Shown: positions 3,483 through 48,836 of the stretch, in pieces
Layout of the letters: every line of letters begins with the position of its first letter
Numbering within the stretch: position 1 is the first letter of the stretch
DNA from: Candidatus Bathyarchaeia archaeon
GTDB lineage: Bacteria; Patescibacteriota; Microgenomatia; PFEM01; JAFGMK01
DNA: 64,000 nucleotides
Direction: 5' to 3'
NCBI GenBank assembly: GCA_035529595.1
Contig: DATKWK010000023.1
Coordinates: forward strand, 206,961 to 270,960
Program-made: the position numbers and the translations under genes
The notes under the pieces: generated by a model
The model's database searches: none
Told to the model about the DNA's origin: nothing
What the model saw: the letters and a program-made list of their open reading frames with translations, nothing else

Positions 3483-4358
3483 ATGAAAAAAACTTGCCCT
3501 CAAGGCATATCGACCGTCTTGATTTTGGGAATAATCGCTGTCTTGGTAACGATCGTTGTTCCCTTAGTGTCACGATCTGTAGTTGATATCCGCATTACTC
3601 AGCAGCAGGAGGAGCAATCGCGCGCCTTTTCCGCCGCCGAAACCGGATTGGACAAGGCGTTGATTGGTGAACCTCTCGAAGGTGAAGTTGGTGAAGATAT
3701 TAGTTACCAGGTAACCGCTACCGGTAAGGGAGGCAGCGACCTTTTTATCTACCCGAAAGTGCTTGAAAAGGATTTTCCGATTACGGTTTGGTTGATGGAA
3801 CATGAAGGCACGGAATTTGATGCCGGATTACCTCTAGATTTTACGGGCGATCATTATCAAGGAGGAACTTTAGGTCTTTTTTGGGGAGCGGTTGGGACAG
3901 TTGATAATTCTGATCAAACTCCGGCAATTGAGACTGTCTTATTCTATCAAGATAATCTTGGTAATTATAAGACGGAAAGATACTTGTTTGACCCGTTTGT
4001 AACCAGAAGAGCGATCAATAACTTTCAGGCCCCGGATACTGGTGGTCCGTACCTGGTCGGATCTCAACAGCTCCAATTTACGAAGTCAAACATCTCCTTA
4101 CCCTGCGATGACGGACCTAATGTTTATTGTTACGCATTAAGATTGAGGCTTTTATACAGCGATAATCCTCATCCTGTAGCTTTGGAAGGAAACAGCGAAA
4201 TCATCCCCCGCCAAGGACAATGCTATGAATCCGTGGCTACCGTCCAAACGTCAGGAATAACGAGTCGGGTTCAAAGGTGTTTATTTTATAAAGATTTCCC
4301 GGCGGTCTTTGACTTTGTCTTATTTTCCAATTATAGTTTAGAGAAGGAATCTCTTTAA
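3483..4358 (+). CDS. PilX-N-like / minor-pilin-like pilus assembly protein
   Basis: N-terminal QG-ISTVLILGIIAVLVTIVV transmembrane segment resembles the PilX N-terminal domain. It sits between the pilins and pilM. Confidence 0.35.
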   Translation: MKKTCPQGISTVLILGIIAVLVTIVVPLVSRSVVDIRITQQQEEQSRAFSAAETGLDKALIGEPLEGEVGEDISYQVTATGKGGSDLFIYPKVLEKDFPITVWLMEHEGTEFDAGLPLDFTGDHYQGGTLGLFWGAVGTVDNSDQTPAIETVLFYQDNLGNYKTERYLFDPFVTRRAINNFQAPDTGGPYLVGSQQLQFTKSNISLPCDDGPNVYCYALRLRLLYSDNPHPVALEGNSEIIPRQGQCYESVATVQTSGITSRVQRCLFYKDFPAVFDFVLFSNYSLEKESL

Positions 4359-8483: not shown

Positions 8484-10511
8484 TTAATTAGGTTCTATCT
8501 GCTTAATTGTATATTCTTTGAGTTTTTCTTGCAAGAGGGGGTGGTGAGAAAGCTCAGTAATTGTTTTTTTGGCCTCTTCCCGGGTAACCTCGACCAGTTT
8601 CAGATCGGAAAAAGAAGCCAGTTTTAATTTAACAAATCCATGCTGTTTGGCACCATACAGCTCGCCCGGCCCTCGCATTTTAAAATCGATTTCGGCAAGT
8701 TCGGGACCGTTAAAGATTTTTTCCATCGACTTGAGACGAAATAAAGGCTTGTTATCCGATTTTTCGCTGAAGAGGAGACAATAAGATTGTTTCCTGCCCC
8801 GTCCTACTCTTCCTCGCAATTGGTGTAACTGAGCCAAACCGAACCTGTCTGCGGCTTCAATCAGCATAATTGTAGCGTTAGGGATGTCAATTCCGACTTC
8901 AACTACCGGTGTAGAAACAAGAATATTTATTTTGCCCGTTCTAAAAGAGGTTAAGACTTTATCTTTTTCCTTTGCTTTCATTCGTCCGTGAAGCAGGCCA
9001 AGTTTTAAGTCGGGGAAAATTCCGGTCTGCAGATTCTTAAATTCGCTTGACACCGCTTTAACCGAAGAAAGGGTTTCCGCTTGTGACTCCTCAATTAAGG
9101 GACAGATAATAAAAGCTTGGTCGCCTTCTTTAATTTTCTGTCTAATCCAGCTGTAAGCGGCGGTTCTTTTTTGATTTGAAACTACCCAGGTTTTAATTCT
9201 TATCCTGCCCGGTGGCAACTGGTCGATAATTGAAAGATCGAGGTCCCCGTAAAGAGTTAGGGCAATAGTTCTCGGAATTGGGGTTGCGGTCATGGTCAAC
9301 AGATGAGCCGTTAAATTATTAGCTGATTTCCGGATCAGAATTGATCTTTGTTCCACCCCGAAACGATGCTGTTCGTCAATGATTGCCAGGCCTAGCTTTT
9401 TAAACTCAGCGCGCTTGTGAATGAGAGCATGAGTACCGATAATTAAATCAAAATCAGTCTCTTTTTTTCCAGTTGAACCCGTCAAAAGAAAAGTCTTTAC
9501 ACCAAGGGGATCAAGCAGCGTTTTTAGGGTTTTATAATGCTGGTTAGCTAAAATCTCCGTTGGGGCCATGAAAGCTGCTTGGCAGCGATTGAGAATTGCG
9601 GTATAGATAGCAATTGCGGCTACTGCCGTCTTGCCGCTACCGACATCTCCTTCAAGGAGTCGGTTCATTGGTTTTTTCTTTTCCAAGTCAGCCAAGATCT
9701 CTTTGGCGACCTTCCTTTGAGCAGCCGTTAATTCAAAAGGCAGCAATTTGATAAATTTAGAAATTTTTTCCTGGTCAACCCGGAATTGATAAGCTAATTT
9801 CTTTCTGAGCCAAGCCTGTTTTCTTTTTTGTGTATTTAGATGCATCAAATACAATTCTTCGAAAGCAAGTCTTTCTCTGGCCCTAGTTGCTTCTTTTAAT
9901 GTTGCCGGAAAATGGATTTCCGTCAAAGCCTCTTTTAAAGCCATCAAGCGGTATTTCTCAATCAAGTTCGAAGGCAGATACTCAGCGAGTTCCGGTACGA
10001 CCTTATAGATCAAAGGGAAAATTCTTGACCTGAGCCATTTTGAGCTGATGCCGTAAGTTTCCGGATAAACTGGCACTATGCGGCCGCTATGGATGGGAGC
10101 TGAGTTTTTGATTGCTTCGTAATCGGGAGAAACAAGAACTAATTTTGAACCGAACCAACCAACTTTTCCTGATAAACTAACTGCCGTTCCGGGCTGGAGG
10201 CTTTTGATTAAAAAAGGTTGGTTGAACCAGGTAATTTCAATCTGCCCAGAATCATCCGTAACAATCCCCTTCTGAATTCTTTTGCCATATTTAGTGTATT
10301 CTTCTTTAAGAGCAATAATTTTACCTTGAATCGTGGACTTTTCGCCAGCCTGAAGCTTGGCAATAGGAGAAATAAGAGTAAAGTCTTCATAGCGGTGAGG
10401 AAAATGGTAGAGAAGATCTTCTACTGTCTTAATGTTTAAGTTTCGTAAACGGCGGGCATAAGTCGGACCAACCATGAAAAGTTTTGAGATAGGGGTTTTC
10501 AAATTCAACAT
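8484..10511 (-). CDS. recG: ATP-dependent DNA helicase RecG
   Basis: N-terminal LYHFPHRYEDF wedge region, Walker A GDVGSGKT, DEQHRFG box and QLRGRVGRG motif VI. Confidence 0.9.
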   Translation of the reverse strand: MLNLKTPISKLFMVGPTYARRLRNLNIKTVEDLLYHFPHRYEDFTLISPIAKLQAGEKSTIQGKIIALKEEYTKYGKRIQKGIVTDDSGQIEITWFNQPFLIKSLQPGTAVSLSGKVGWFGSKLVLVSPDYEAIKNSAPIHSGRIVPVYPETYGISSKWLRSRIFPLIYKVVPELAEYLPSNLIEKYRLMALKEALTEIHFPATLKEATRARERLAFEELYLMHLNTQKRKQAWLRKKLAYQFRVDQEKISKFIKLLPFELTAAQRKVAKEILADLEKKKPMNRLLEGDVGSGKTAVAAIAIYTAILNRCQAAFMAPTEILANQHYKTLKTLLDPLGVKTFLLTGSTGKKETDFDLIIGTHALIHKRAEFKKLGLAIIDEQHRFGVEQRSILIRKSANNLTAHLLTMTATPIPRTIALTLYGDLDLSIIDQLPPGRIRIKTWVVSNQKRTAAYSWIRQKIKEGDQAFIICPLIEESQAETLSSVKAVSSEFKNLQTGIFPDLKLGLLHGRMKAKEKDKVLTSFRTGKINILVSTPVVEVGIDIPNATIMLIEAADRFGLAQLHQLRGRVGRGRKQSYCLLFSEKSDNKPLFRLKSMEKIFNGPELAEIDFKMRGPGELYGAKQHGFVKLKLASFSDLKLVEVTREEAKKTITELSHHPLLQEKLKEYTIKQIEPN

Positions 10512-10665
10512 AAAGATCCAACTTTGTTTTTATATTATATCTTATCTGAGGATCGAATAGAGGGCGGGAAGGAGAGAAGTGAGCAATAAAGCCGTACCGG
10601 CGATAACGCTAATAAAAACCCATAATTTTTGTTTCTTTTTGGAAATCATCATGTTTCAAAAAAAC

Positions 10666-11922
10666 CTAGCTGATGCGCAATTTTAGAAATCTCCTTTTTC
10701 CTATTCTAATTACCGTCCCGTCGTTTTGAGCGCCTACCTTAAATTCCCGATTGGTCACTGGTAAATCGCTGATTCTTACCGACCCTTGCTGAATTAATCT
10801 TTTGGCTTCACTTCTTGAATTAGCTAATTCGCTTTCGGTTAAGATATCAACCAAAAGCTGTCCTCTCTTTACTTCATAAGTGGAGATTTCTGCCGGCAGT
10901 TCCTTTTTTTGGAATATTTTTTCAAATTTTGTCTGAGCTTCCTCGGCTTCTTTTTTTGAGTACAGCATTTTGACAATTTCTAAAGCCAGCTCCTTCTTTA
11001 TTTTCATTGGATTAGTAGTGCCTTTTTTCAAGGTTTCGCTTATCTTTCTCACTTTTGATAACGGAATATCAGTCAGCAGCTCAAATCCAAGGACAATTAC
11101 TTCATCGGGAAAGGACATGATGCCGCCGTACATGTCGGCAGGCGCGGCGTTTAAAAAAAGGGCATTACCGGTGGTTTTGCCAACTTTTTGTCCTTTCGAG
11201 TCAACCAGCAGTTTGGTAGTGAGGATAAGTTTTTCCTTACCTTTAGTAGCCTTCATCAAAGTTCTTCCGCAAAGCATATTAAAAGTTTGGTCATTCCCTC
11301 CTATTTCAAGATCAACAGCCATCTTGACTGAGTCAATCGCTTGGGCTAACGGATAAAGGAATTCATGCAAAAAGATTGGCTTACCTTCCCTTAAGCGCGT
11401 CTGAAAGAAATCGCGCTCGATCATCTGTTGAACCGTAAAATTGGCTGAAATTTCAATTAAATCTTTAAAAGTTATTTTATCGCTCCAATGACTATTAAAC
11501 ATCATTTTAGCGGCATTAGGGCCGCTGAAATTAAGGATTTTTCCTACCTGCCTTTTCCAGGTTTTTGAATTATCTAAAACCTGCTTTCTGGTCAGTCTGG
11601 GGCGAACGGCTGATTTTTCCGTCGGGTCACCAATCATGCCGGTAAAATCACCAATCAGAAAAATTACCTCATGACCTAGATCTTGGAATTCCTTCAGCTT
11701 AAGAATGCCGACTAGATTACCCAAGTGAAGATTAGGCATTGACGGATCAAACCCTTGGTATAAACGGAGCTTTTTGTCTGATCTTAGTACTTTTTCCAGA
11801 GCCTTTTTTGAGGGGTAAATTTTCTCTACTCCCCTAGTTAAGATTTCTTCAATTTTATCCATAAATTCCTCTTTTAATTGTAAAACAAAAGACGGGCTTT
11901 GTCTATTTGGATTATATTGCAA
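10666..11922 (-). CDS. tyrS: Tyrosine--tRNA ligase
   Basis: Class I HLGN (HIGH-like) motif, KVGKT (KMSKS-like) motif and a C-terminal S4 domain. Confidence 0.8.
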   Translation of the reverse strand: MQYNPNRQSPSFVLQLKEEFMDKIEEILTRGVEKIYPSKKALEKVLRSDKKLRLYQGFDPSMPNLHLGNLVGILKLKEFQDLGHEVIFLIGDFTGMIGDPTEKSAVRPRLTRKQVLDNSKTWKRQVGKILNFSGPNAAKMMFNSHWSDKITFKDLIEISANFTVQQMIERDFFQTRLREGKPIFLHEFLYPLAQAIDSVKMAVDLEIGGNDQTFNMLCGRTLMKATKGKEKLILTTKLLVDSKGQKVGKTTGNALFLNAAPADMYGGIMSFPDEVIVLGFELLTDIPLSKVRKISETLKKGTTNPMKIKKELALEIVKMLYSKKEAEEAQTKFEKIFQKKELPAEISTYEVKRGQLLVDILTESELANSRSEAKRLIQQGSVRISDLPVTNREFKVGAQNDGTVIRIGKRRFLKLRIS

Positions 11923-12808
11923 AGACAGTGCCTTCTTCCGTAATCTGAAAACCAGTTTTTATTACCTGTTTATAAGCTTTGCTTTTTTTATTCAGAACAG
12001 GATTAGTATGGTTGAAATGAATGAAATAAATTTTTCTCCTTTCCAAAAGTGGTAGTTTGGAAAATATCTTGATACTTTCTGAAATTAGAGGATGAGGAAT
12101 TTCCTTGATATTTCTATAAGACAGTTCGCTTTGATCAAAAAAAGTTCCGTCAAGAAAAGCCAAGTCAACCTTTCTAACCATCTCTTTAATATCATTTTTT
12201 AGAAACTCCCATTTGTCGATATCAGGAATAAAGAGCACTTTTTTATTTGGGCCTTCAATAACAAAACCTACGGTTTCTGTGTATTCATCTCGATGGTTTA
12301 CTAAAAAAGGCAAGATTGAAATATGCTTATTCAATTTTGTTTTTTGATTTTTTTGTAATTGTTTAATTTTAATATTTTTTTTCTGAATTAAATCTTTCCA
12401 GGGGCTGTTTGCCAATAAGAATATTTTCATTTTAGGCATGACAAAAACCGGAATTTTCTGAGCATTTAAGATTGCTTTTTCTAAGCATAATAAGCCAGTA
12501 TAGTGACCAATGTGGCCATGAGTTAAAAAGATTCCTTCAAGACCTGGCGGTTTTTTTATGGTTGGGAAAACTTTATTTAGTAAAGCTAACTGAAATTTAA
12601 AATCCGGCGTCGTTTCAATAAGCCATCTTTTTTTAAGTTGGGGATCGATAATAGCCAGACTAGTAGTATTTTTCCTTACAGATAAATCTCCCCAAGCTTT
12701 CCGGCAGCATAAGTTATTACAACCACAATGAGGTACACCGCCGTCCTGAGCAATACCCAGGATAATGATAAACGGGTTAGTTTTGTTTTTGGCAAAGGCT
12801 TGTTTCAT
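11912..12808 (-). CDS. MBL-fold metallo-hydrolase, PqqB-like
   Basis: N-terminal LGIAQDGGVPHCGCNNLCC resembles the PqqB GSAAGGGxPQWNCNC region, and THGHIGHYTG is the beta-lactamase-fold HxHxDH-type motif. It overlaps the tyrS start by 11 nt. Confidence 0.5.
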   Translation of the reverse strand: MKQAFAKNKTNPFIIILGIAQDGGVPHCGCNNLCCRKAWGDLSVRKNTTSLAIIDPQLKKRWLIETTPDFKFQLALLNKVFPTIKKPPGLEGIFLTHGHIGHYTGLLCLEKAILNAQKIPVFVMPKMKIFLLANSPWKDLIQKKNIKIKQLQKNQKTKLNKHISILPFLVNHRDEYTETVGFVIEGPNKKVLFIPDIDKWEFLKNDIKEMVRKVDLAFLDGTFFDQSELSYRNIKEIPHPLISESIKIFSKLPLLERRKIYFIHFNHTNPVLNKKSKAYKQVIKTGFQITEEGTVFAI

Positions 12809-12930
12809 TATCTGATAGTCTGATTATATAATAAAAATACTTTCTCGGGGCTCCCTTTGATATTGGTCTTGCTAGACTTTTATCGCGGGGAGCCCGAGAA
12901 GGCGCTTGGGATGCATTTGCTCAGATTTTT

Positions 12931-13884
12931 TTACAGAACGCCCATCCAGAGTGGGACTGACATGCATTCCTTGGTTGGATGCATGTGGCCATAGAGATCG
13001 TCCTCGCCAAAATTCTCTCCGTGGTCACCGGTTACGAAGACGAATATCTCTCGGCTCGTAATTGATCTTAGACCATCGAAAAGTTGGCCAAACTTGGGAT
13101 CTAGTGCCTCAAGCCCGTTAATCTGCATCTGGTGCAGGTTTTTGGCCTGAGCCGCCAAAACCAGCTTGGTTGTAGCCGAGAGTTTTTGTGATCGGAGATT
13201 TAAGCCTTGGCTTAGTGTTGAGAAGACGGCGTGAACTTCTTCTGGAATTCCCTCGCCCCAGTCGTATGGATAGTGAGGTTCGGGACAATTAATGAAGAGA
13301 AACCATTGGCCATGCCGACCAACATATTTCCCAAGGTGGCTGACAATCTCTTCGACGTGATTGAGGGGAAACGTTTCCGGCTTTCTTTCCGTCAATGGCT
13401 CTTCGTCCATGTCCGGGCCGAAGTAAAAGAACTTCGACCAAGGGAAAGCAGTTCGGAGGAAACTTCCAGTTGAGAACTGGGAAACGCCTCCTACACCAAG
13501 GACATGGAACCCTAGCTGACGGAATCCTTCGATAACATTGTTACCGTCAAAAAGGATACCGCAGCCCTTGCCGGCATCGCGAGCCGGTCCAGTAGTGATC
13601 CTGAATGGCTGCCGAGCTACTTCGTTGTAGTAAGGCTCAAGCGCAGAAGCTATCGACGGAAGATGGCCCAAAAACATGGCCGTGTGGGCGGCTGGGGTGT
13701 AAGGCGAGAGTGTGACCGCTTTCATCATTAGCCCCAGACTGTCTAGGACTGGGGTTCGGGCCGACCCAGCCGTGTCATACCGACAACTGTCTAGGGTGAT
13801 CAGAACTCCATTCAGCCCCTCTAGACTTTCTAGATCAGTTATTTGAGTTTTCATTTTGACCCTCCTCAGGTCTAGTTCTGTCAA
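12931..13884 (-). CDS. Alkaline-phosphatase-superfamily (sulfatase/metalloenzyme-like) protein; visibly GC-richer than its surroundings
   Basis: VTGDHGENFGEDDLYGHMHP metal-site motif. A GAGGAGG RBS lies 7 nt upstream of the ATG. Composition and codon use differ from neighbouring genes. Confidence 0.4.
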   Translation of the reverse strand: MTELDLRRVKMKTQITDLESLEGLNGVLITLDSCRYDTAGSARTPVLDSLGLMMKAVTLSPYTPAAHTAMFLGHLPSIASALEPYYNEVARQPFRITTGPARDAGKGCGILFDGNNVIEGFRQLGFHVLGVGGVSQFSTGSFLRTAFPWSKFFYFGPDMDEEPLTERKPETFPLNHVEEIVSHLGKYVGRHGQWFLFINCPEPHYPYDWGEGIPEEVHAVFSTLSQGLNLRSQKLSATTKLVLAAQAKNLHQMQINGLEALDPKFGQLFDGLRSITSREIFVFVTGDHGENFGEDDLYGHMHPTKECMSVPLWMGVL

Positions 13885-24275: not shown

Positions 24276-24393
24276 TGGCTGAATTTTACCCTGATGATAC
24301 CTTAAAACAAAAAAACCTGCAACTATTGCAGGAGTCCCGAAAGTTGGTGACGTTTACGGCCTACTTCCCTGCTCCTAATTAATCCTTTTCTAG

Positions 24394-24467
24394 TGGGCTC
24401 GACAGGACTCGAACCTGTGACCTTTTCGATGTCAACGAAACGCTCTAGCCAACTGAGCTACGAGCCC
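24394..24467 (-). tRNA. tRNA-Val(GAC)
   Basis: 74-nt cloverleaf GGGCTCG.../...CGAGCCC, anticodon loop TTGACAT, T-loop GGTTCGAGTCC; CCA not encoded. Confidence 0.85.
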
Positions 24468-24487: not shown

Positions 24488-24787
24488 TTAAGTATATTTT
24501 TGATCTTCCAGAAGTTTAATCTTTCTTTGGCAGATTCCGATTCTTCGGTCGTGGTCAACGCTCTTTTCAAGGGAAATATCCAATTTTCGTTCGACCCGAA
24601 TCATATCCTCTTTCAGTCCGGAAACATCCTCTTTCAGTCCGGAAACATCCTCTTTGAGATCAAAAATTGGTTCTAAAACTTTTTCCTCTAAAAATTTACT
24701 GATTTCACCGGTATACTTTCTCAATTGCTGGATCAAATAAGTTTTTGTAATCGGTTGATCATTGTTTACCTTTTTCTTCATAGTCAC
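24488..24787 (-). CDS. Small coiled-coil protein with an internal heptapeptide tandem repeat (LKEDVSG x ~2.5)
   Basis: Clean 99-aa ORF. The repeat is encoded by a 21-bp tandem DNA repeat. Confidence 0.45.
   Translation of the reverse strand: MTMKKKVNNDQPITKTYLIQQLRKYTGEISKFLEEKVLEPIFDLKEDVSGLKEDVSGLKEDMIRVERKLDISLEKSVDHDRRIGICQRKIKLLEDQKYT
24600..24660 (-). repeat. 21-bp tandem repeat (~2.5 copies) inside the CDS
   Basis: atcctctttcagtccggaaac repeated head-to-tail at 24605-24625 and 24626-24646, with a partial third copy. Confidence 0.7.
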
Positions 24788-24852
24788 ACTTTAACACCTA
24801 GCCTTTACTCTGTCAATTGAAGCAGGAATTTCTATTTCGGTCAGGATTATTG

Positions 24853-26154
24853 CTATTTTATTCTCACATCGGTAAGCACGGCATCTGAAGCACCTCTCAC
24901 TTTCCAATGAGGTCTGAAGTTAGCTGTTATGCCAATAAAGCATATTTTTCCCGTCTGTGGGTTCCTTGAATAAATAGGCATGAATCTAGCATGCATATTT
25001 TCCTCTACTAGACTCTCTTGTTCTTGGTCAAAATAACGAACCGGGAATTTTGGGGAATAATACGGTTGAATAATCCAGGGCTGGCCGCTTAAGGCTAAAT
25101 CATCATAACATCTATGAATGGTTGTCCACCGACTATTCGAAAAAGGATCCAATCTCCATACCTGTCTTGAGCCGAAGCTTAATTTCATCAGCGAACCGGC
25201 ATATTTATAAACAATTTCATCATCAGCCCACCGAGGTAAATCTAGTAAATGATCTAAAATATGTGTCGGTGCAAAAAGAGCTCGATCATGGTCATTGAAT
25301 AAAGTTTTTAGTTTTGGGTGAAAAGGAAATGCCATTGCCAACTTCTGATCAAAGATCACATTTAATGGCGGTTCAATTGCCACTTCTCCCCGCAGATTTC
25401 TTTCTATCAGTTTTCTGCCAGTCGGAGATTCAGCAAGCATAGGCAGATTTAGTTCTCTTCGGTAAATAAAATCAGCATCTCGTATTTCCTCCTCCCAATC
25501 ATTTATTAGAACCACCTCACAATTTAAACCCTGTCTTTGTTTTAGCAATGAGGCGAAGTAAGCTGATTCGCCAAGGTAATTTGTTGGGCAGAGAAGAACT
25601 ACTCGATGCGGTTCTCTACCTAATTTTGCTCTTACAGCCATGGCAAAACCTGAATCCAGTGCAATGTCAACCACATTTTTTCCTAATGAAGGTTCGGGGT
25701 TAACTGCTTGCATAACTTCTGATATGGCACTCATATAACCCCATCCGCCGATTCTGAATTGGACTTCGACAGCCGACCAAAAGTCAGTCAGATCGGCTCT
25801 GGCAAAAAGCGGCAGTTCGCCTCTTTGTGCAAGCATTCTCTGGTATTTGATTGCTTGAGGAGAAAGATTGCTTTCAAAAAGAGAGGCTATCCAATGATAA
25901 CGATAATTGGTAGTTCCTGCCAGATAAAGCTGGTTTGTCATTTCTAGCCAATGGTAAATCCATACTCCTTGAGATAAGACTGAAGCTGCTTCCTGGTTAC
26001 AGACATTAAAACTGTCCGGTGTAACCAGCATAGAATACGATTGTTGGTCACCGTACCCCAATCTTCGTTGGTCAAGTGCAGATTTTATTTGGCAGACTCT
26101 TTCCAAATCGAGATTTTCGCTATGAATTGTTGCAGGTGGTTTTTCAACCGACAC
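24853..26154 (-). CDS. Glutathionylspermidine-synthetase-family (YgiC/YjfC-like) ATP-grasp amidoligase
   Basis: Motif spacing matches the E. coli YgiC pattern as recalled from memory: FPFHPKLKTL vs FPNHPNLLPA, and WIIQPYYSPKFP vs MIVQQFHPLPKF. It overlaps the upstream gene by 11 nt, so the two are co-transcribed. Confidence 0.5.
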   Translation of the reverse strand: MSVEKPPATIHSENLDLERVCQIKSALDQRRLGYGDQQSYSMLVTPDSFNVCNQEAASVLSQGVWIYHWLEMTNQLYLAGTTNYRYHWIASLFESNLSPQAIKYQRMLAQRGELPLFARADLTDFWSAVEVQFRIGGWGYMSAISEVMQAVNPEPSLGKNVVDIALDSGFAMAVRAKLGREPHRVVLLCPTNYLGESAYFASLLKQRQGLNCEVVLINDWEEEIRDADFIYRRELNLPMLAESPTGRKLIERNLRGEVAIEPPLNVIFDQKLAMAFPFHPKLKTLFNDHDRALFAPTHILDHLLDLPRWADDEIVYKYAGSLMKLSFGSRQVWRLDPFSNSRWTTIHRCYDDLALSGQPWIIQPYYSPKFPVRYFDQEQESLVEENMHARFMPIYSRNPQTGKICFIGITANFRPHWKVRGASDAVLTDVRIK

Positions 26155-27100
26155 CTTTTTTTTCCTTTCCAGCTGTTTGCCCCAGAGCTAAAATTTTGTC
26201 ACCAGTTTTGACAATATTTGGCTCTGAAATCATAATTATTTGCCCTGCTATCGGAGTTTTTACTTTTTCCGAATCTAGAGTTTCCAATGACACGATTTTT
26301 CCAAAAGGGATATTTACTTGAATGTTTTCACCCGTTTTTTTAAGAGGGATAAATAAACCAGAGATCGGAGAGGTTACTATCTTGCGATTAATGATCGGGA
26401 CTTTGTTTACAGTTCGGTAAAACTTATCAGTAATTGTGTTTCTGACAACAACCGATATGCCTCTTAAAATCTTTTTAATTTGATCTGAACTAATTTTATC
26501 AATAAGAGGGAGTTCTAATGCAAAAGCGATATTGTTTCTAATTAGAAGTAATTCTATCAAAGACCCTTTTTTATCGATGTCCTCTCCCTGGGTATCTAAT
26601 TTCCAAATAAAATCGGGATTAAAAAGATATAGAAACTTTTGAGTTTTAGTCATTAATTTATCCTTCTTGTCAATTGGAACGAGAATTCCGGTAATCAGGA
26701 GGTCCATTTTAGGAAATGTATGAAAATCTATTAATAGATTACTATCCTTAACTGCCTGAAAAAGATAATATGCAATTCGCTCAGAAAGGGTTCCTTTTTT
26801 GTTTCCAGGAAAAAGTCGATTAAGATCCTTGTTATCGGTTGGTAACTCACGGGAATTATTTATGAGACAGAGCGGATTAGCAAAAGGTATAATTTTGATG
26901 GTTCCGTTTATTTGCGGCCAATTCTTGATCTTTTGAAACAATCTTTCTAAGATTAACGTGCCTGTATCTTCGTTTCCGTGAAGGCCGGAGATTAATGAAA
27001 TAACTGGTTTTCCTTGGCCAATTTTAATAATTGGAATTTGGATATCGATTGGTCCCACACTGCCGATTTTGATCCTTGAAGTTTTAATTTGCTGATTCAT
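26144..27100 (-). CDS. Succinylglutamate desuccinylase/aspartoacylase (AstE/AspA) family Zn-dependent deacylase
   Basis: The GLHGNE metal/catalytic motif near the N-terminus is characteristic of the family; about 318 aa. Confidence 0.6.
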   Translation of the reverse strand: MNQQIKTSRIKIGSVGPIDIQIPIIKIGQGKPVISLISGLHGNEDTGTLILERLFQKIKNWPQINGTIKIIPFANPLCLINNSRELPTDNKDLNRLFPGNKKGTLSERIAYYLFQAVKDSNLLIDFHTFPKMDLLITGILVPIDKKDKLMTKTQKFLYLFNPDFIWKLDTQGEDIDKKGSLIELLLIRNNIAFALELPLIDKISSDQIKKILRGISVVVRNTITDKFYRTVNKVPIINRKIVTSPISGLFIPLKKTGENIQVNIPFGKIVSLETLDSEKVKTPIAGQIIMISEPNIVKTGDKILALGQTAGKEKKGVG

Positions 27101-27106
27101 AGAACT

Positions 27107-27275
27107 AAAAAACCTCCCGTTTGGGAGGTTGTCTTTATGCTTAAATTACTAATAATTATTTTTTAACGCAAATACCAACCTCCCCTTTCTCGAGGTTAAA
27201 AAAGAAAAAACTAAAGATTTGGTTGATATTTCGTAACATTAAAGCAACATTGTAACAGATTTTTTCAGTTTGTCA
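27107..27275 (-). promoter_or_regulatory. Promoter plus attenuator-like leader upstream of the deacylase/amidoligase operon
   Basis: On the - strand: TTGACA (27275-27270), 16-nt spacer, TACAAT (27253-27248); then a leader containing GGGGAGGUUGG and the hairpin CCUCCC-AAAC-GGGAGG plus U6 ending 8 nt before the ATG at 27100. Confidence 0.5.
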
Positions 27276-27313
27276 AATTTTTTGTATAGGTCAAGCAAGC
27301 TTTTCTCGCATAC

Positions 27314-28396
27314 TTAAGATGAAATAATAAATTTTTTAAGAATTCGATAGTAGGTTTCTAGACTTTTAATATTTACCCATTCATTATTAATATGCCCTTT
27401 GCTTTGAACTGGAGCGAACATAATGACTGGGATTCCTTTCGCCGAGAAAAAACGACCATCAGAAGCAGGATAATCTTTTATAATTCTTAGGGGAATATTT
27501 TTTTGCTTGGCAAGCTTTAGTATTTTTTTAATATATTCGTTATCCGGCGATATATCCATGGGATCGCCTTCAATTAAGATTTGAAAGCCAGATTTTTTTT
27601 GTTTTTCTACACTATTGCTTACAATTTTAATTATTTTTTCTCTCATCTCAGTCTCAGGGTAGCGAAAATCAAGATACATTTCTGCCTGTGCTGGAACAAC
27701 ATTAGTTGCACTCCCGCCGCTGATTTTTCCCAAATTAACGGTTGGTTGCCAGCGATCAAACTTGCTTGTTTCCGGTATACGTTTTCTTATTGCCTGAGAA
27801 ATTTCAAGTAATTTCTCAATTGCGTTTACACCTGTCCAAGGCCGACTGGCATGGGCGGATTTTCCTCTTGCAGTGATTTTGATATGAATGATTCCTTTTT
27901 CTTTCAAAACCAGGCGGAAATTTTCTCCCCCATCAGGAATAATTGCGCAATCGCAAGTAAAATTTTCCTTATTAAGTAAATAATTGACCCCATCAAAACC
28001 GCCAACTTCTTCATCTGAAGTAAGCATAAGAGCAAAGTCAATATCTTTTAACTGCATGTCTTGAGCTAATTGGATCATGACGGAAACTGTTCCTTTCATA
28101 TCGGCTGCACCCCTTCCGTAAAGACGATTCTCTTTTATGATTGGGCGAAAGGCATTAGGATAATCTGCAGGGACTACATCTAGATGGCCGTTTAAGATAT
28201 AGCGATAATGCTTTTTAAGCTTTCGAGCTACTATCAAAGATATTTTATTGTTTGAAAAACAAGTTTTGAATCTCAAGCCGTTTTTTTTCAGATAATTCTT
28301 GAGAAACTCAAAACATCTTTGAATTTCATGAGGATGATCTTTGTCAGATTGAAATCTGATTAATTTTGACAGTAGCGGCTGAATTGATTTATTCAT
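27314..28396 (-). CDS. M20-family metallopeptidase (ArgE/DapE/CPG2-like amidohydrolase)
   Basis: NGHLDVVP and GRGAADMKG metal-binding motifs and a dimerisation-domain region. Confidence 0.75.
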   Translation of the reverse strand: MNKSIQPLLSKLIRFQSDKDHPHEIQRCFEFLKNYLKKNGLRFKTCFSNNKISLIVARKLKKHYRYILNGHLDVVPADYPNAFRPIIKENRLYGRGAADMKGTVSVMIQLAQDMQLKDIDFALMLTSDEEVGGFDGVNYLLNKENFTCDCAIIPDGGENFRLVLKEKGIIHIKITARGKSAHASRPWTGVNAIEKLLEISQAIRKRIPETSKFDRWQPTVNLGKISGGSATNVVPAQAEMYLDFRYPETEMREKIIKIVSNSVEKQKKSGFQILIEGDPMDISPDNEYIKKILKLAKQKNIPLRIIKDYPASDGRFFSAKGIPVIMFAPVQSKGHINNEWVNIKSLETYYRILKKFIISS

Positions 28397-28405
28397 TTAT
28401 TCAAT

Positions 28406-30415
28406 CTAGTATAGTCTCTGGGATCTTGCATACGCAAGAATCTTTCCGGCCATTCGTCTGCTAATTGGCACTCCCAGTCCCCCATAGCCGCCCGTAATGT
28501 TAGTTTTACTAGAGCCGGGTGGACTAATCCTGATAACAGGATAGGTATAAACAGTACCGATTGACTGAGGATCTAAATCAAATCTTACTTCTACTGTCTG
28601 TAATTCATGCCTACCGTCTGGTTTCTCTACAAACATAACCGTGGTTGTGCTGTTGTCCAGCTCAATGACCTCTTGGATTAGGCAGTTTTGCCGATTAAGT
28701 GAATTTTCGATTAAAATCGACCAAACACGATCATAGAGTGATTCTAGTTGATCGGTTTCTATTCTGGCTGATCGTTCCGCTATGCCTTGCCTGATGACTA
28801 ATTGGGCTATCTCTGCAGGCGATTTTCCGCTTTCGCCTGGTGTTAAAGCACGCCCAGTGATTAAATCTTGCCTGAAAACACCATTATGCCAGGCGTCAGT
28901 AAACTCTGCCCTGCTCATTCCTGTAATAGTCGTAAGATCATCGTTTTCCATAGCGATATAATCTTCGTAATCAAGCTCATCCAAATTAATTGATCTGCCG
29001 ACATGGACACTGGTTCCGGAATGTCCCGCTAAAGAATCTCTTTTAAGAACCCAAGCTTGTCTATTATTTTCGATAGTATCGATCTCAGTATCGTTTAGAC
29101 AAAGGCTTCGGTAGCTCTCATCGCCGGGATAGAGACCGTCGTTTTGCCTCCGGAGCATGTTAGCTTGGGGAATGCATCTTTCAAGAATATTTTTTATTCC
29201 TTCAACGCCCATGTCCTTGACCGCCCGGGATAGCGAGAGATCGTGGCTAAGTTGATCATGGGCTAGAATTCTAGAGACTGTTTCCCAGACCCCAAAACGG
29301 TCTAAGTAATCTTGATTCCCAAGCATTACGTCCATTTTCTTGTCGGTTGAATAAGAATTAAAAGGATTTACTACTTGTTGTGTTGCTAGTTTTAAGAATC
29401 TCTGCCAGATAGTCTCTTTGCCATCGCTACATAATTTTTGATCGGTATCATCTTTGAAATTCTGCCATAAATCCAGATTTTCCATTGCTTCTCCGTGTAA
29501 TCGTCTGATTATGCTGACTTCTATTATTTCATCCGATTCTGTGGATTGACAAATAACTAAATAGTAGGGTTCTCTTTGAGGTAAGCTAATTTCTTTAATA
29601 TCCACGATGTCTCTTGGGTCAAAGGCAAGAGCCTGCTGATGATATCTGCCCTGATATCTTTGAGCTGTTTGATTAGCTTCAAGACCGGATAAAGAGCTTC
29701 TTTCTCTCCAGGCCAGATAACCAACTATCGGGTAATCCTTTCTACTCGTCGCCAAACGATATCGGGTGATCATTATTCTCATTATCTGCTCGTCGCTATG
29801 GGGAGCGATTTTTATTCTTTGATCTTCGGATAACTGAAGGCAGAGACCTAATATCTCTTCAACTGTTCGAAGAGCATCGGACACTATTATGTCACCCTGT
29901 GGTTCGCCGCCATTGTTTTCCATCCAGTAAGAAGCACCGCTATTTAAATCAGTATATGTATCTCCTCTCCATCGATGCTGACTTTTTGTCGGAAAAAAAG
30001 GTTGCGAGCGCATAATCTCCCGCGTCAATTGATCAACACCAGCCTCAAAGAAATTTCTTAAGTCTTCATCTTTACTCATTTTCATTAAAATAGCAGCTCG
30101 AACAAGATTGGTTGCTTGAGTATTAAGACCAAGCCCTCTTTCACTTTCTTCAGGAATGATAGTAGGTACAAGGGGGACATTAATTCGTCTGGTAACTTGG
30201 TGTGTTGTTGGATTTTCGAGGAATAGGCTTCTCTCTTGGTAATCCTGCAGAATCCGAAGCGCACCCTCTCGTCTTTTTTGGTCGGAAAGACAATGGGCAA
30301 TAAAGCGGCACATCTCTGACTGTAATTCTTGGAGAGTTAAGGATTCCAGTCTTTCCCGTTCTTGTTCAAAGACGGGGCTTTGAATTTCTAGTTCTTTTCC
30401 AGAATGCAAGACCAT
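28406..30415 (-). CDS. Large hypothetical protein (669 aa) with no recognisable motif, in an operon with the M20 peptidase
   Basis: Uninterrupted 669-codon ORF with normal local composition. It has its own promoter and leader, and stops 10 nt before the M20 start. Confidence 0.5.
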   Translation of the reverse strand: MVLHSGKELEIQSPVFEQERERLESLTLQELQSEMCRFIAHCLSDQKRREGALRILQDYQERSLFLENPTTHQVTRRINVPLVPTIIPEESERGLGLNTQATNLVRAAILMKMSKDEDLRNFFEAGVDQLTREIMRSQPFFPTKSQHRWRGDTYTDLNSGASYWMENNGGEPQGDIIVSDALRTVEEILGLCLQLSEDQRIKIAPHSDEQIMRIMITRYRLATSRKDYPIVGYLAWRERSSLSGLEANQTAQRYQGRYHQQALAFDPRDIVDIKEISLPQREPYYLVICQSTESDEIIEVSIIRRLHGEAMENLDLWQNFKDDTDQKLCSDGKETIWQRFLKLATQQVVNPFNSYSTDKKMDVMLGNQDYLDRFGVWETVSRILAHDQLSHDLSLSRAVKDMGVEGIKNILERCIPQANMLRRQNDGLYPGDESYRSLCLNDTEIDTIENNRQAWVLKRDSLAGHSGTSVHVGRSINLDELDYEDYIAMENDDLTTITGMSRAEFTDAWHNGVFRQDLITGRALTPGESGKSPAEIAQLVIRQGIAERSARIETDQLESLYDRVWSILIENSLNRQNCLIQEVIELDNSTTTVMFVEKPDGRHELQTVEVRFDLDPQSIGTVYTYPVIRISPPGSSKTNITGGYGGLGVPISRRMAGKILAYARSQRLY

Positions 30416-30426
30416 TTTTTTGAAAT

Positions 30427-30630
30427 AAAAAAACCTCCCTGATTTGGGAGGTTCCCTGTTAATACTTTTTACTTTTTAGATTTTACTTTTTATTTTCCAT
30501 TTTCCTCCCAAACCAGCGATTACCTTGCAATAAGGCTAATAATAATGCTGTTAAGGAGGGTTCTGTGCATAATAATTCCTCTTTCTATTGTTGAGCCCAT
30601 ATTATGGAAACATCACTAATAATATGTCAA
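30427..30630 (-). promoter_or_regulatory. Promoter plus attenuator-like leader upstream of the 669-aa gene
   Basis: On the - strand: TTGACA (30630-30625), 18-nt spacer, CATAAT (30606-30601); upstream UUUGGGAGG element; hairpin CCUCCC-AAAUCA-GGGAGG plus U7 (30451-30427) just before the ATG at 30415. Confidence 0.5.
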
Positions 30631-48103: not shown

Positions 48104-48652
48104 TTATAAACTTAAGATAGGGTCGGCTGGAGATGACTTGATCTCGTGTACAAAATAGTTGACTTTTTGCGGCCAAGTCAGTGATTCTGCGTATATGCGG
48201 CCGATCTTGGGAATTGTATCGGCGCCTTTGGCGATATAATTTCTTTTCAATGACCGGGTAATATGTTCGATTGATTGTTCCCAGGAAGAAAAATAATATC
48301 TGCCGCTGGCCCAGCCGTAAGCATTGTAGGTTCCCCGAATATAAAAATGACCAAAGCTTGATTCAACTCCGGTGATTGCCGGTAACAGGAAGTCGAGATC
48401 AAGTTGGCTTAATCCATATTTATCGGCAATCCGGATAAAAATAGGCGCATACTCGGCAAGAGGAGAGTGATGTTTTTCCAAGTAGTATTTTAATTTACTA
48501 ATTCTCAGATCTGACTTTTTTACGACTTGCCGGTTTTTGGGAAACGCTGACGCTCCGGCGATAAGAATTTCATCAGCATAAACGGTTTTAGTATCAGTCT
48601 TTAAAAGTAAGCCGATTAAAATAAAGGATAAAAGACAAATCTTTTTTGCCAT
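48104..48652 (-). CDS. Secreted protein with an SLT/glucosaminidase-like domain (putative peptidoglycan hydrolase)
   Basis: Signal peptide, then AITGVESSFG...NAYGWASG...SWEQSIEHI; paralogous to the 48837..49457 gene. Confidence 0.4.
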   Translation of the reverse strand: MAKKICLLSFILIGLLLKTDTKTVYADEILIAGASAFPKNRQVVKKSDLRISKLKYYLEKHHSPLAEYAPIFIRIADKYGLSQLDLDFLLPAITGVESSFGHFYIRGTYNAYGWASGRYYFSSWEQSIEHITRSLKRNYIAKGADTIPKIGRIYAESLTWPQKVNYFVHEIKSSPADPILSL

Positions 48653-48836
48653 AAATAAAAATTAGCCGCTAAATAGCAGCTAATTTTTTATTGTATAAAA
48701 AAATCCTAAAGTAAACCGATTAAGCGTACTTTAGGATCTAGAATTATACTAGCACAGAAAATTAAAAATGTCAAGTATTATTGGGAAAATTTGCTTCTAT
48801 GGACTGTTCTTTAAGAGAGTTGCCGCAGACATTTTG

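Follow-up and report, generated by a model that had tools for sequence, protein, structure and literature searches.

The closest precedent for the ligase–hydrolase modules described here, by analogy, is the hmrA/ldmS operon of Staphylococcus aureus, in which hmrA encodes an M20 (M20D) Met-X dipeptidase and ldmS encodes an ATP-grasp L-Asp-L-Met ligase (PMC9486568). Its expression is controlled through CodY/CymR sites or by a terminator riboswitch of the S-box type, and the authors raised the same paradox as arises below, namely, that a ligase is induced while its amino acid is scarce; what the ligase does physiologically is unsettled there too (PMC9486568). The present locus resembles it in the two-gene organization, with an M20 metallopeptidase and an ATP-grasp amide ligase, and in the link between expression and scarcity of the cognate amino acid, a link here suggested by the leaders. 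The first-pass annotation could name no described pathway of such composition; the S. aureus operon is a described analogue.

Related ligase folds are represented by YgiC/YjfC and GspS of E. coli, which are peptide-spermidine and glutathionylspermidine ligases, GspS also bearing an amidase domain, as well as by eukaryote-type glutathione and homoglutathione synthetases and the fungal enzyme Cp1B of the E-64 pathway, which joins L-amino acids to a dicarboxylic acid (PMC12568646). The leaders described here are built like enterobacterial pheA/ilv attenuators (Rfam RF01859 Phe_leader): a promoter is followed by a short ORF containing a run of regulatory codons, the 1:2, 2:3 and 3:4 pairings exclude one another, and an intrinsic terminator precedes the first structural gene.

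All four minus-strand genes reported earlier in the window (the whole 64,000-nucleotide stretch analysed) were found at the stated coordinates: the gene of a 669-aa putative ligase (ligase B, 28406..30415), the gene of a 360-aa M20 hydrolase (27314..28396), the gene of a 318-aa AstE-like deacylase (26144..27100) and the gene of a 433-aa putative ligase (ligase A, 24853..26154), starting with GTG. The first two are separated by 9 nt, rather than by the 10 nt given by the first-pass annotation; the last two overlap by 11 nt, as was described, and the division into two coupled operons was borne out, each having a sigma-70-like promoter upstream. By sequence, the region is two paralogous two-gene modules, each consisting of a predicted permuted ATP-grasp ligase and a predicted zinc amidohydrolase. 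Module B comprises the 669-aa ligase and the M20 enzyme, and module A comprises the AstE/AspA-like deacylase and the 433-aa ligase. The earlier idea of making and breaking an amide is judged sound. Since the 669-aa and 433-aa proteins are remote paralogs, the four genes form two parallel modules and not one four-enzyme pathway.

Ligase A has a YgiC/GspS-type, circularly permuted ATP-grasp fold with the motifs R119-x-D121...E130-x-Q132, K271, K317 and Q363. Ligase B, previously taken for an orphan with no recognisable fold, has a glutathione-synthetase-like, circularly permuted ATP-grasp fold with the motifs R150-x-D152...E166-N-N168, K359, K458 and Q581. Catalytic motifs of both are collinear with those of E. 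coli YgiC and invariant inside each family, but the metal motif E-x-N has Q in place of N in the 433-aa family, which counts against the reading preferred below. The assignment of the 433-aa protein to the glutathionylspermidine synthetase family did not hold: identity to YgiC/YjfC/GspS is ~12%, the Pfam search gave no match to PF03738 even at E ≤ 1, and the hhalign probability against YgiC is only 0.2%. Judged from its sequence, it is a member of an unmodelled family in the permuted ATP-grasp clade. Unlike GspS, which has a CHAP amidase, the modules encode the hydrolase as a separate metallo-deacylase, and no sign of a polyamine substrate was found here. Identity to the glutathione and homoglutathione synthetases and to Cp1B, which is among the fold neighbours of the ligases, is 10–13%; the 669-aa protein is bacterial, shares an operon with a hydrolase and is ~200 residues longer than these enzymes (N-terminal helical region; insert at ~480-575). 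The Pfam families CP_ATPgrasp_1/2 (PF04174/PF14403; e.g., PDB 3n6x) gave sub-threshold matches from only 2/36 and 1/36 members, and this locus lacks their usual partners (alpha-E, transglutaminase-like). Lys is consistently scarcer in both ligases than in the partner hydrolases.

The assignments of both hydrolases were upheld by Pfam. The 318-aa protein contains AstE_AspA_cat (E 3e-21; score 76.2 bits, cutoff 25); it is COG3608-like, with the motif H41-x-x-E44...H127, its best NCBIfam match is DoeB (3e-16, far under the cutoff), and its relatives in PDB are 3cdx and 6twl. The 360-aa protein, of the ArgE/DapE type, contains Peptidase_M20 and M20_dimer (E 4e-24 and 2.5e-23), scores 195.5 bits against the NCBIfam DapE-ArgE cutoff of 217.6, carries the metal-ligand motifs H71, D98, E129/E130 and H335, and has 2rb7, DapE, ArgE and CPG2 as relatives in PDB. 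Active-site motifs are intact in both, and the nearest characterised relatives, DapE/ArgE/CPG2 and DoeB/AstE, are enzymes that strip N-acyl groups off amino acids.

Both gene pairs recur in other genomes, which argues that the adjacency is not due to chance. Many of the loci used in the comparison are, however, close relatives and so not independent. Members of the 433-aa family adjoin AstE, with the two genes in either order, in 12 of the 13 loci with sufficient flank (L006–L013, L015–L017 and L021); the ligase of L020 lacks AstE. Downstream of genes of the 669-aa family, M20 is found in L001 (four paralogs), L002–L004, L005 and L023. The homolog in L023 is 30% identical and keeps the M20 partner, with no attenuator, while that in L025 has neither leader nor M20. 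Next to the 433/AstE pair, L007, L009, L010 and L021 also have an M20 gene; in L016, one lies ~0.8 kb upstream of AstE.

Attenuator-type leaders, proposed earlier for both operons, were confirmed in their architecture: each has a promoter, a mini-ORF, an antiterminator and a terminator, all on the minus strand. The predicted promoter of module B (30601..30630, TTGACA-18-CATAAT) was identified by its match to the consensus, at 11/12 positions. Mini-ORF B (30520..30570), with GAGG upstream, encodes the Ile/Leu-rich peptide MHRTLLNSIIISLIAR; segment 1 (30560..30553, CCCTCCTT) lies within it, followed by the antiterminator segment 2 (30510..30503, TGGGAGGA) and the terminator ACCTCCCAAATCAGGGAGGT with a T-run (30426..30452), ending ~10 nt upstream of the start codon. 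Pairing of segment 2 with the 5' arm of this terminator has an energy of -11.4 kcal/mol, whereas shuffles average -5.3 and only 0.3% of them reach this value. In module A, the promoter (27249..27276, TTGACA-16-TACAAT with a TG extension) also has 11/12 matches in a consensus scan. Mini-ORF A (27156..27239, MLRNINQIFSFFFFNLEKGEVGICVKK), with 5 Phe in 6 codons, begins ~10 nt past the -10 box and is thus nearly leaderless. Segment 1 (27198..27191, TAACCTCG) is immediately 3' of the Phe codons, segment 2 (27185..27177, GGGGAGGTT) is within the mini-ORF, and terminator A (27105..27130) consists of AACCTCCCAAACGGGAGGTT and a T-run. The energy of the 2:3 pairing is -12.1 kcal/mol, the average of shuffles being -4.6 (z -4.2); again, only 0.3% of shuffles do as well.

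In both operons, the GC hairpin with its T-run reaches right up to the start codon, and the only SD-like sequence ahead of the AstE start in module A is the 3' arm of this hairpin, GGGAGG; in these features, in the nearly leaderless mini-ORFs and in governing ligase/hydrolase genes rather than biosynthetic enzymes, the leaders differ from pheA/ilv attenuators. Only three ORF starts in the window have such a terminator no more than 60 nt away, and two of the three are those of these operons. The combination of promoter, mini-ORF and terminator was found in 12 leaders across loci, and antiterminator pairing is better than in shuffles in 6/7 scorable leaders, with pairing sequences varying between loci (GGGAGG, GGGCGG, GGUGAGGG, GAGGGAGGG). 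The Rfam Phe_leader match of leader A is under threshold (32.6 bits vs. GA 55), and terminator hairpins by themselves draw such sub-threshold matches. Leader-peptide attenuation is not known from the lineage of this bacterium, a literature search having turned up no paper.

Mini-ORFs of module A are aromatic-rich, with FSFFFF in the window and QYWFYFYF-type clusters in relatives. The share of aromatic residues is 24% in the leaders of module A, compared with 8% in those of module B and 9% in the background proteome (p = 0.0014), and at least 5 of 8 aromatic residues are found in only 1.7% of random mini-ORFs. In the L012 lineage, a second aromatic leader lies immediately ahead of the ligase; in leaders of long-form operons, only 3 of 8 residues are aromatic. 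Counterparts of mini-ORF B in homologous loci are MNFVNNSILFVLLINP, MKYMSLIIIFVLLITGA and a peptide ending in CLSILSLFIIRQGKRA, and module B mini-ORFs contain Ile/Leu/Val clusters of 5-7 per 8 residues, a modest signal (p = 0.055), weaker than the aromatic signal of A. AT-/T-rich DNA readily yields Phe and Ile runs, and the mini-ORFs of the window alone are weak evidence. The aromatic composition of module A mini-ORFs agrees with that of MSQVYFSFYFFTR, the leader, followed by a terminator, of a genuine operon for Phe biosynthesis in L002, where MKYMSLIIIFVLLITGA precedes the divergent 669/M20 operon of the same locus. Leaders A and B have only the terminator hairpin in common, and, since their mini-ORFs differ and the difference is kept in related loci, the common signal suggested earlier is unlikely; the signals of the two modules are probably different. 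Module A apparently senses shortage of aromatic amino acids, and module B probably that of branched-chain amino acids.

The best reading of these data, with a probability of about 0.5, is that the paired modules constitute an amino-acid-class-specific system of conjugate capture/release or salvage, in which conjugates would be made and broken separately for each class. A ribosome stalled at the codon cluster of the mini-ORF would mask segment 1, leaving segment 2 free to pair with the terminator 5' arm, so that polymerase reads into the genes; when charged tRNA is plentiful, the ribosome would reach the stop codon, segment 2 would be covered or bound to segment 1, and the terminator would form. 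Given the leader compositions, induction is expected when Phe/Tyr/Trp-tRNA is short for module A and when branched-chain aminoacyl-tRNA is short for module B. The ligase most likely joins a carboxylate and an amine via an acyl-phosphate at the expense of ATP, with an N-acyl-amino acid or small peptide of the leader's amino-acid class as the candidate product, and the partner hydrolase would cleave such an amide, freeing the amino acid, which the organism is probably unable to make. A small-molecule context is suggested by the EamA and LysE transporters next to the modules of L011, L010 and L021. Co-induction of the ligase is paradoxical for this explanation, as it would use up the scarce amino acid.

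The single pathway of the first-pass annotation, in which a ligase of the GSP-synthetase family, two deacylases and an orphan with no fold would share one signal, agrees with the contiguity of the four genes, with the attenuator as the only terminator between the operons, and with the occurrence of AstE and M20 together after one ligase in L007, L009, L010 and L021. It is largely refuted by the paralogy of the 669-aa and 433-aa proteins and by the independent occurrence of the pairs (L001, L002 and L005 lack AstE/433; L008, L011, L012 and L017 lack the 669 gene); the leaders also differ in mini-ORF composition, and this version is highly improbable. No more credible is a role of the mini-ORFs as RiPP-like precursor or scaffold peptides for the ligase and hydrolase, with the hairpin as a leaky stoichiometry-setting terminator. 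RiPP operons typically contain a small ORF, a terminator and enzymes, and the mini-ORFs encode hydrophobic peptides that show partial conservation within lineages; yet their C-termini and cores differ between lineages (FSFFFF, QYWFYFYF, WHYYC), the Asp/Glu/Lys/Ser/Thr cores used by ATP-grasp RiPP enzymes are absent, an antiterminator segment able to pair with the terminator arm is present in every leader, and an ordinary Phe-biosynthesis operon is preceded by the same leader design.

Another unlikely option is that the ligases build an exported amino-acid-derived amide or dipeptide, a signal or Trojan-horse antimetabolite against the host, the hydrolase serving for self-protection or maturation and starvation-sensing leaders triggering production to extract nutrients. 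ATP-grasp ligases make bacilysin- and tabtoxin-type dipeptides, and EamA and LysE-family transporters, typically exporters, directly adjoin the module in L011, L010 and L021. The fold neighbour Cp1B makes a protease-inhibitor precursor (PMC12568646). On the other hand, the modules of the window, L001, L002, L005, L007 and L016 have no transporter next to them, further tailoring or warhead genes are not present, and the tight 1:1 deacylase pairing on one transcript suits a cycle better than one-way synthesis. It is quite improbable that the leaders sense translation stress or a ribosome-targeting antibiotic by erm/cat-type stalling, with the enzymes detoxifying an amide-containing inhibitor. 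The leader peptides ...SIIISLI and ...IIIFVLLI presumably resemble ErmCL IFVI-type arrest peptides, and peptide antibiotics can be inactivated by hydrolases and ligases, but no arrest motif is common to all leaders, and their composition follows module type (aromatic vs. aliphatic) and resembles that of the Phe-biosynthesis operon leader, which fits amino-acid sensing and not a drug-specific arrest motif. Reversible protein or peptide tailing is very unlikely; here the ligases would add amino acids to a C-terminus or side chain like RimK or tubulin-tyrosine ligase, and the M14-like AstE and M20 enzymes would trim them. Neighbourhoods of ATP-grasp and AstE/COG3608-type deacylase genes around RimK were reportedly described by Iyer et al. 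in 2009, and the scarcity of Lys in the ligases relative to their partners might mean avoidance of self-modification.

With amino-acid-class-specific conjugate capture/release or salvage as the preferred reading, the modules of this tiny symbiotic-type bacterium point to a hitherto undescribed means by which amino-acid supply is managed.

Four open reading frames were found on the minus strand, exactly where the first-pass annotation had placed them: the gene of a 669-aa ligase (28406..30415), followed after a gap of 9 nt by the gene of an M20 protein (27314..28396), and then the gene of an AstE-like protein (26144..27100), overlapping by 11 nt the gene of a 433-aa ligase (24853..26154, GTG start). 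The cluster is flanked by housekeeping genes, namely, those of ThrRS, IF3, tRNA-Val, trigger factor and ThiI, as well as by genes for DUF5660 and DUF5665 domains. A 99-aa ORF (24488-24787, minus strand) with its own promoter-like site (24816..24788) encodes a coiled-coil-like protein with the tandem repeat KEDVSGL KEDVSGL KEDM and no family assignment; it is followed by the gene of tRNA-Val(GAC) (24393-24467). Identical proteins are named 'MAG TPA ... [Candidatus Bathyarchaeia archaeon]' in NCBI; the window carries bacterial hallmarks (trigger factor, IF3, sigma-70 promoters, intrinsic terminators, DUF5660/DUF5665), its relatives are Patescibacteria, and the archaeal name probably reflects an error in binning or classification.

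The two hydrolases were assigned as proposed earlier. The AstE-like protein matches AstE_AspA_cat (PF24827, 76.2 bits vs. a cutoff of 25, E 3e-21), and the M20 protein matches PF01546 (86.1 bits, 4e-24) and M20_dimer PF07687 (82.5 bits, 2.5e-23). The Zn-ligand motif H-x-x-E...H of the former (H41, E44, H127) and the metal-ligand motifs of the latter (H71, D98, E129/E130, H335) are intact. In NCBIfam, the AstE-like protein is nearest to DoeB, AstE and aspartoacylase, all three equivalogs scoring below cutoff (DoeB 59.2/402.7, aspartoacylase 21.3/180, AstE 17.7/305.65), and the M20 protein falls among the ArgE/DapE deacylases, being neither DapE nor ArgE proper (best equivalog PRK08651.1-2, 215.6 vs. 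381; subfamily TIGR01910, 195.5 vs. 217.6). The nearest solved relatives are DapE, ArgE and CPG2 for the M20 protein, and DoeB and AstE/AspA for the AstE-like protein; all of these enzymes cleave N-acyl-amino-acid-type amides.

No match to any Pfam, NCBIfam or PDB sequence model was detected for the 433-aa and 669-aa proteins. The former had been taken for a member of the GSP_synth family, but the PF03738 search proposed for this assignment gave no match at E<=1 for either protein, and the assignment was not upheld. PF03738 did not match any of 36 family members even at E<=10, a value of E 0.047 was obtained for one remote 669 relative, and the hhalign comparison of the family with E. coli YgiC was negative (0.2% probability). 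The sole Pfam echoes were CP_ATPgrasp_1/2, below threshold, in 3/36 members. A word-indexed homolog search with the 433-aa protein returned only the query itself, and its profile version one more match. An exhaustive phmmer search with both proteins concatenated yielded 189 proteins in total, including approximately 150 proteins remotely related to the 433-aa protein (25-35% identity), some with an N-terminal extension of about 170 aa, and about 15 relatives of the 669-aa protein; no Pfam domains were found among them. The 433-aa and 669-aa proteins do not match each other in BLASTP, and their relationship is visible only by profile-profile comparison of the two families (93.9% probability, E 1.6e-7, 331 columns), with invariant residues in register. 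Accordingly, they are remote paralogs, and the 669-aa protein, previously described as an orphan, is a second ligase.

In 3D fold, both models match solved circularly permuted ATP-grasp members clearly better than classical ATP-grasp enzymes, which score only 6-9 against either of them. YgiC (R100/D102/E114/N116, K269, K302, Q336), the 433-aa protein (R119/D121/E130/Q132, K271, K317, Q363) and the 669-aa protein (R150/D152/E166/N168, K359, K458, Q581) carry, in the same linear order, the motifs R-x-D...E-x-N/Q, a mid-protein Lys, hhK...G and hhQ. These residues, invariant within each ligase family, with Q in place of the expected N in the 433 family, would form the nucleotide/Mg site, judging from sequence. 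Since fold and motifs fit the circularly permuted ATP-grasp ligase clade (eukaryote-type GS / GspS / YgiC / CP_ATPgrasp), while at the sequence level the proteins are not GSP_synth, both ligases are therefore placed as unmodelled families inside this clade.

The long-form members of the 433 family, having an extra N-terminal part of about 170 aa (MDAVYVAMKDD...) without a Pfam match, were found in L007, L008, L010, L011, L020 and L021, which belong to the neighbourhoods of related genes from other genomes (L001-L025) compared with the window. Both ligase families are consistently poorer in Lys and richer in Arg than the co-operonic hydrolases; the window ligases contain 3.1-3.7% Lys vs. 10.8-11.3% in their partners. 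In the window, L001, L002, L005, L007-L012, L016 and L017, K/(K+R) is 0.28-0.55 for ligases vs. 0.30-0.84 for their partners, with the ligase lower in every locus compared; avoidance of self-acylation and foreign origin are two possibilities.

The relatives come from genomes of Candidatus Doudnabacteria and the 'Patescibacteria group'. Genes of the 433 family adjoin an AstE-like gene in L006-L013, L015-L017 and L021, in one of two orders: AstE precedes the ligase gene, as it does in the window, or a long-form ligase gene comes first; the exception is L020, containing a 433-family ligase without AstE. Because several loci are near-identical, this corresponds to about nine independent positives and one negative. 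An M20 gene is a further direct neighbour in L007, L009, L010 and L021; in L016, it is located about 0.8 kb upstream of AstE. The 669 family is directly followed by M20 in L001, L002-L004, L005 and L023, the L023 ligase being only 30% identical; L025 contains a 669-family gene without M20. This co-conservation rules out chance adjacency. In other genomes, each gene pair is found without the other. The pairs represent modules and not halves of one pathway: module A (AstE-like protein and 433-aa ligase) and module B (669-aa ligase and M20 protein) are two copies of one module. The anatomy of the cluster is solid.

In L001, which shares the trigger factor-DUF5660 synteny with the window and lacks the AstE/433 pair at this locus, the 669 homolog is followed by four tandem M20 paralogs (8925-13346), which may broaden the substrate range. 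In L022 (5052-9722), a distant 669 relative (838 aa, 29% identity) is directly followed by a protein with a Mur-ligase domain, and a VanY D-Ala-D-Ala carboxypeptidase is encoded close by; these partners are different, and the chemistry is again the making and breaking of peptide bonds.

Each operon is preceded by a near-consensus promoter, a mini-ORF and a hairpin with a T-run abutting the start codon; only three sites with a terminator just before an ORF are present in the 64-kb window. The mini-ORF of leader A, upstream of module A (27239..27156, minus strand), encodes MLRNINQIFSFFFFNLEKGEVGICVKK-stop. Segment 1 (TAACCTCG) comes immediately after the Phe codons. Segment 2 (GGGGAGGTT), located inside the mini-ORF, has two complementary partners, segment 1 and the terminator's 5' arm (segment 3), the 2:3 duplex having an energy of -12.1 kcal/mol vs. 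a shuffle mean of -4.6. The mini-ORF of leader B, upstream of module B (30570..30520, minus strand), encodes MHRTLLNSIIISLIAR-stop, with the same pairing logic. Leaders A and B can be aligned only over the terminator hairpin.

The same architecture with other pairing sequences was found before 669 homologs in L001, L002 and L005, before AstE genes in L012, L013, L016 and L017, and before long-form ligases in L008, L010 and L011. The 2:3 duplex was better than shuffles in 6/7 scorable leaders (fraction 0.003-0.043; 0.14 in L001), those of L012 and L016 not being scorable. As read from sequence, the leaders appear to have two features of attenuators: mutually exclusive terminator and antiterminator pairings, whose sequences differ between loci, and clustered codons in a short ORF between promoter and terminator (FSFFFF in window leader A, IIISLI in window leader B). 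The codon clusters recur in the relatives and in the Phe-operon control from L002, and are weaker in module B and long-form leaders.

In the L012/L015/L016/L017 lineage, a second leader copy lies between AstE and the ligase gene (L012 1796-1975, L016 7802-7980, L017 2461-2640, L015 405-585), consisting of an aromatic-rich mini-ORF, MIKKQKLNQF[C/Y]FNAFWAVYFYCYSHREIDFGKQK-stop, whose start overlaps the AstE stop (ATGA), and a terminator. These operons thus contain tandem attenuators, in contrast to the window, where AstE and ligase overlap by 11 nt.

In the long-form operons, the leader terminator and the RBS are separated by another 130-190 nt (L008 7330-7515, L011 7385-7510, L010 7090-7265). 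A long hairpin, GGGGGTAGAAAGGAT...CTTTCTACCCC, is conserved in this extra stretch, and a motif similar to ATCCTAGCA is common to these loci; the stretch has no Rfam match, the long-form leader of L011 giving only sub-threshold, hairpin-driven Rfam matches, and may be a second regulatory element. The 3' arm of terminator A (27105-27130), GGGAGG, lies 12 nt from the AstE start and is the only upstream sequence resembling a Shine-Dalgarno site, so the hairpin could also block translation initiation, providing dual transcriptional and translational control. Elsewhere in the window, the minus strand at 48652-48790 carries a promoter close to consensus (TTGACA...TATAAT) and, after it, two hairpin + T-run elements directly before a 182-aa ORF; this ORF has no Pfam match, and its leader has no obvious mini-ORF and gives only sub-threshold, hairpin-driven Rfam matches.

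The mini-ORFs of module A are aromatic-rich, with FSFFFF in the window, QYWFYFYF, KFWFYSYF, QYWFYFY and QF[C/Y]FNAFWAVYFYCY in relatives, and the weaker WHYYC and WHYCF; those of module B are aliphatic-rich (SIIISLI in the window; SILFVLLI, SLIIIFVLLI and SILSLFII). Aromatic residues account for 24% of A leaders vs. 8% of B leaders, with a proteome background of 9% (Fisher p 0.0014 for sequences that are not independent). Clusters with at least 5/8 aromatic residues occur in 1.7% of 2,220 random mini-ORFs from the same DNA. The aliphatic (ILV) signal of B leaders is weaker, at 5-7/8, with at least 6/8 in 3.4% of random mini-ORFs.

An internal control is provided by a genuine Phe-biosynthesis operon in L002, containing genes of PfkB, DAHP synthase, chorismate mutase, prephenate dehydratase and aminotransferase. 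Its leader (3963-4140, minus strand), comprising a promoter, MSQVYFSFYFFTR-stop, an alternative hairpin and the terminator ACCGCCAAAACCGGCGGTTTTTTT, is by its sequence a classical Phe attenuator in this lineage. The 669/M20 operon of L002, with the mini-ORF MKYMSLIIIFVLLITGA-stop, diverges from the same spacer, back-to-back with the Phe attenuator. This indicates that the lineage uses aromatic-rich leaders for genes of aromatic amino-acid supply, and that the module A leader is of the same kind. The Rfam model Phe_leader RF01859 gave 32.6 (leader A) and 26.9 bits vs. a gathering threshold of 55, and 20.6 bits on unrelated hairpins; being below threshold, and since terminator hairpins alone draw such matches, the leader A match is a hint only. 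The regulation of the modules, as predicted from the leaders, is well supported. The first-pass interpretation was thus retained in part: besides the supposed orphan, the common signal proposed for both operons gave way, probably to two different amino-acid signals.

With ample charged tRNA, the ribosome would reach the mini-ORF stop, segment 2 would be masked or paired with segment 1, and the terminator would form, in module A also burying the only SD-like sequence. When Phe/Tyr/Trp-tRNA (module A) or Ile/Leu/Val-tRNA (module B) is scarce, the ribosome would stall over segment 1, segment 2 would pair with segment 3, and transcription would run on into the enzyme genes. We infer this stalling, the dependence of read-through on charged tRNA, and the enzyme reactions: the ligase is predicted to join a carboxylate and an amine through an ATP-dependent acyl-phosphate, and the deacylase to hydrolyze an N-acyl-amino-acid or peptide amide, releasing the amino acid.

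Co-induction of a ligase with a hydrolase is a paradox, and our best guess is that the pair acts as a capture-and-release buffer for scarce amino acids. Patescibacteria are largely unable to synthesize amino acids. The boldest reading, with a probability of roughly 0.3, is that in Patescibacteria classical leader-peptide attenuators control more than biosynthetic operons and also switch on dedicated ligase/deacylase pairs driven by ATP. Such pairs would serve for capture and release of one amino-acid class, or for its extraction from a host. Rival readings of the modules are a secreted amide product, protein tailing, RiPP-like peptides and, for the leaders, drug sensing. Genes of EamA or LysE transporters adjoin the module in some loci, favouring small-molecule amino-acid chemistry over protein modification. 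Three known routes were set aside: LysX/LysK carrier-protein biosynthesis, no carrier or intermediate enzymes being present; the D-to-L route of N-succinyl-amino-acid racemase, no racemase being present; and cyanophycin-like storage, for which the hydrolase type is wrong.

The closest precedent for the modules is hmrA/ldmS of S. aureus, comprising an M20 Met-X dipeptidase and an ATP-grasp Asp-Met ligase and regulated by CodY/CymR or an S-box (PMC9486568), where an amide ligase and a peptidase are co-induced on amino-acid limitation and this paradox had already been pointed out. Cp1B couples a dicarboxylic acid to L-amino acids (PMC12568646), and the current annotation of YgiC and YjfC is peptide-spermidine ligase (Pederick 2023, as cited in PMC12568646). 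Taken singly, the elements of the modules (ATP-grasp ligases, deacylases of the M20 and AstE families, and leader-peptide attenuators) are all of known kinds. What appears to be undescribed is the two ligase families, modelled in no library, their systematic pairing with two different deacylase families, and the control of such pairs by amino-acid-class-specific leader peptides in Patescibacteria, for which no literature on leader-peptide attenuation was found in the library searched.

Two related ligase families without Pfam, NCBIfam or PDB representatives are thereby defined, together with a putative second, independent case, after hmrA/ldmS, of a ligase and a peptidase co-induced on amino-acid limitation. 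The leader peptides would in effect label each operon with its amino-acid class, narrowing the substrate search for the four enzymes, and the biochemistry and physiology of the modules are now directly testable. If true, the findings would make it possible to read from sequence how Patescibacteria, with their reduced genomes, sense and answer a lack of individual amino acids, which is a central question in the study of these uncultivated symbionts, and the capture-and-release or extraction reading would represent an undescribed strategy of amino-acid acquisition in ultra-small symbionts.
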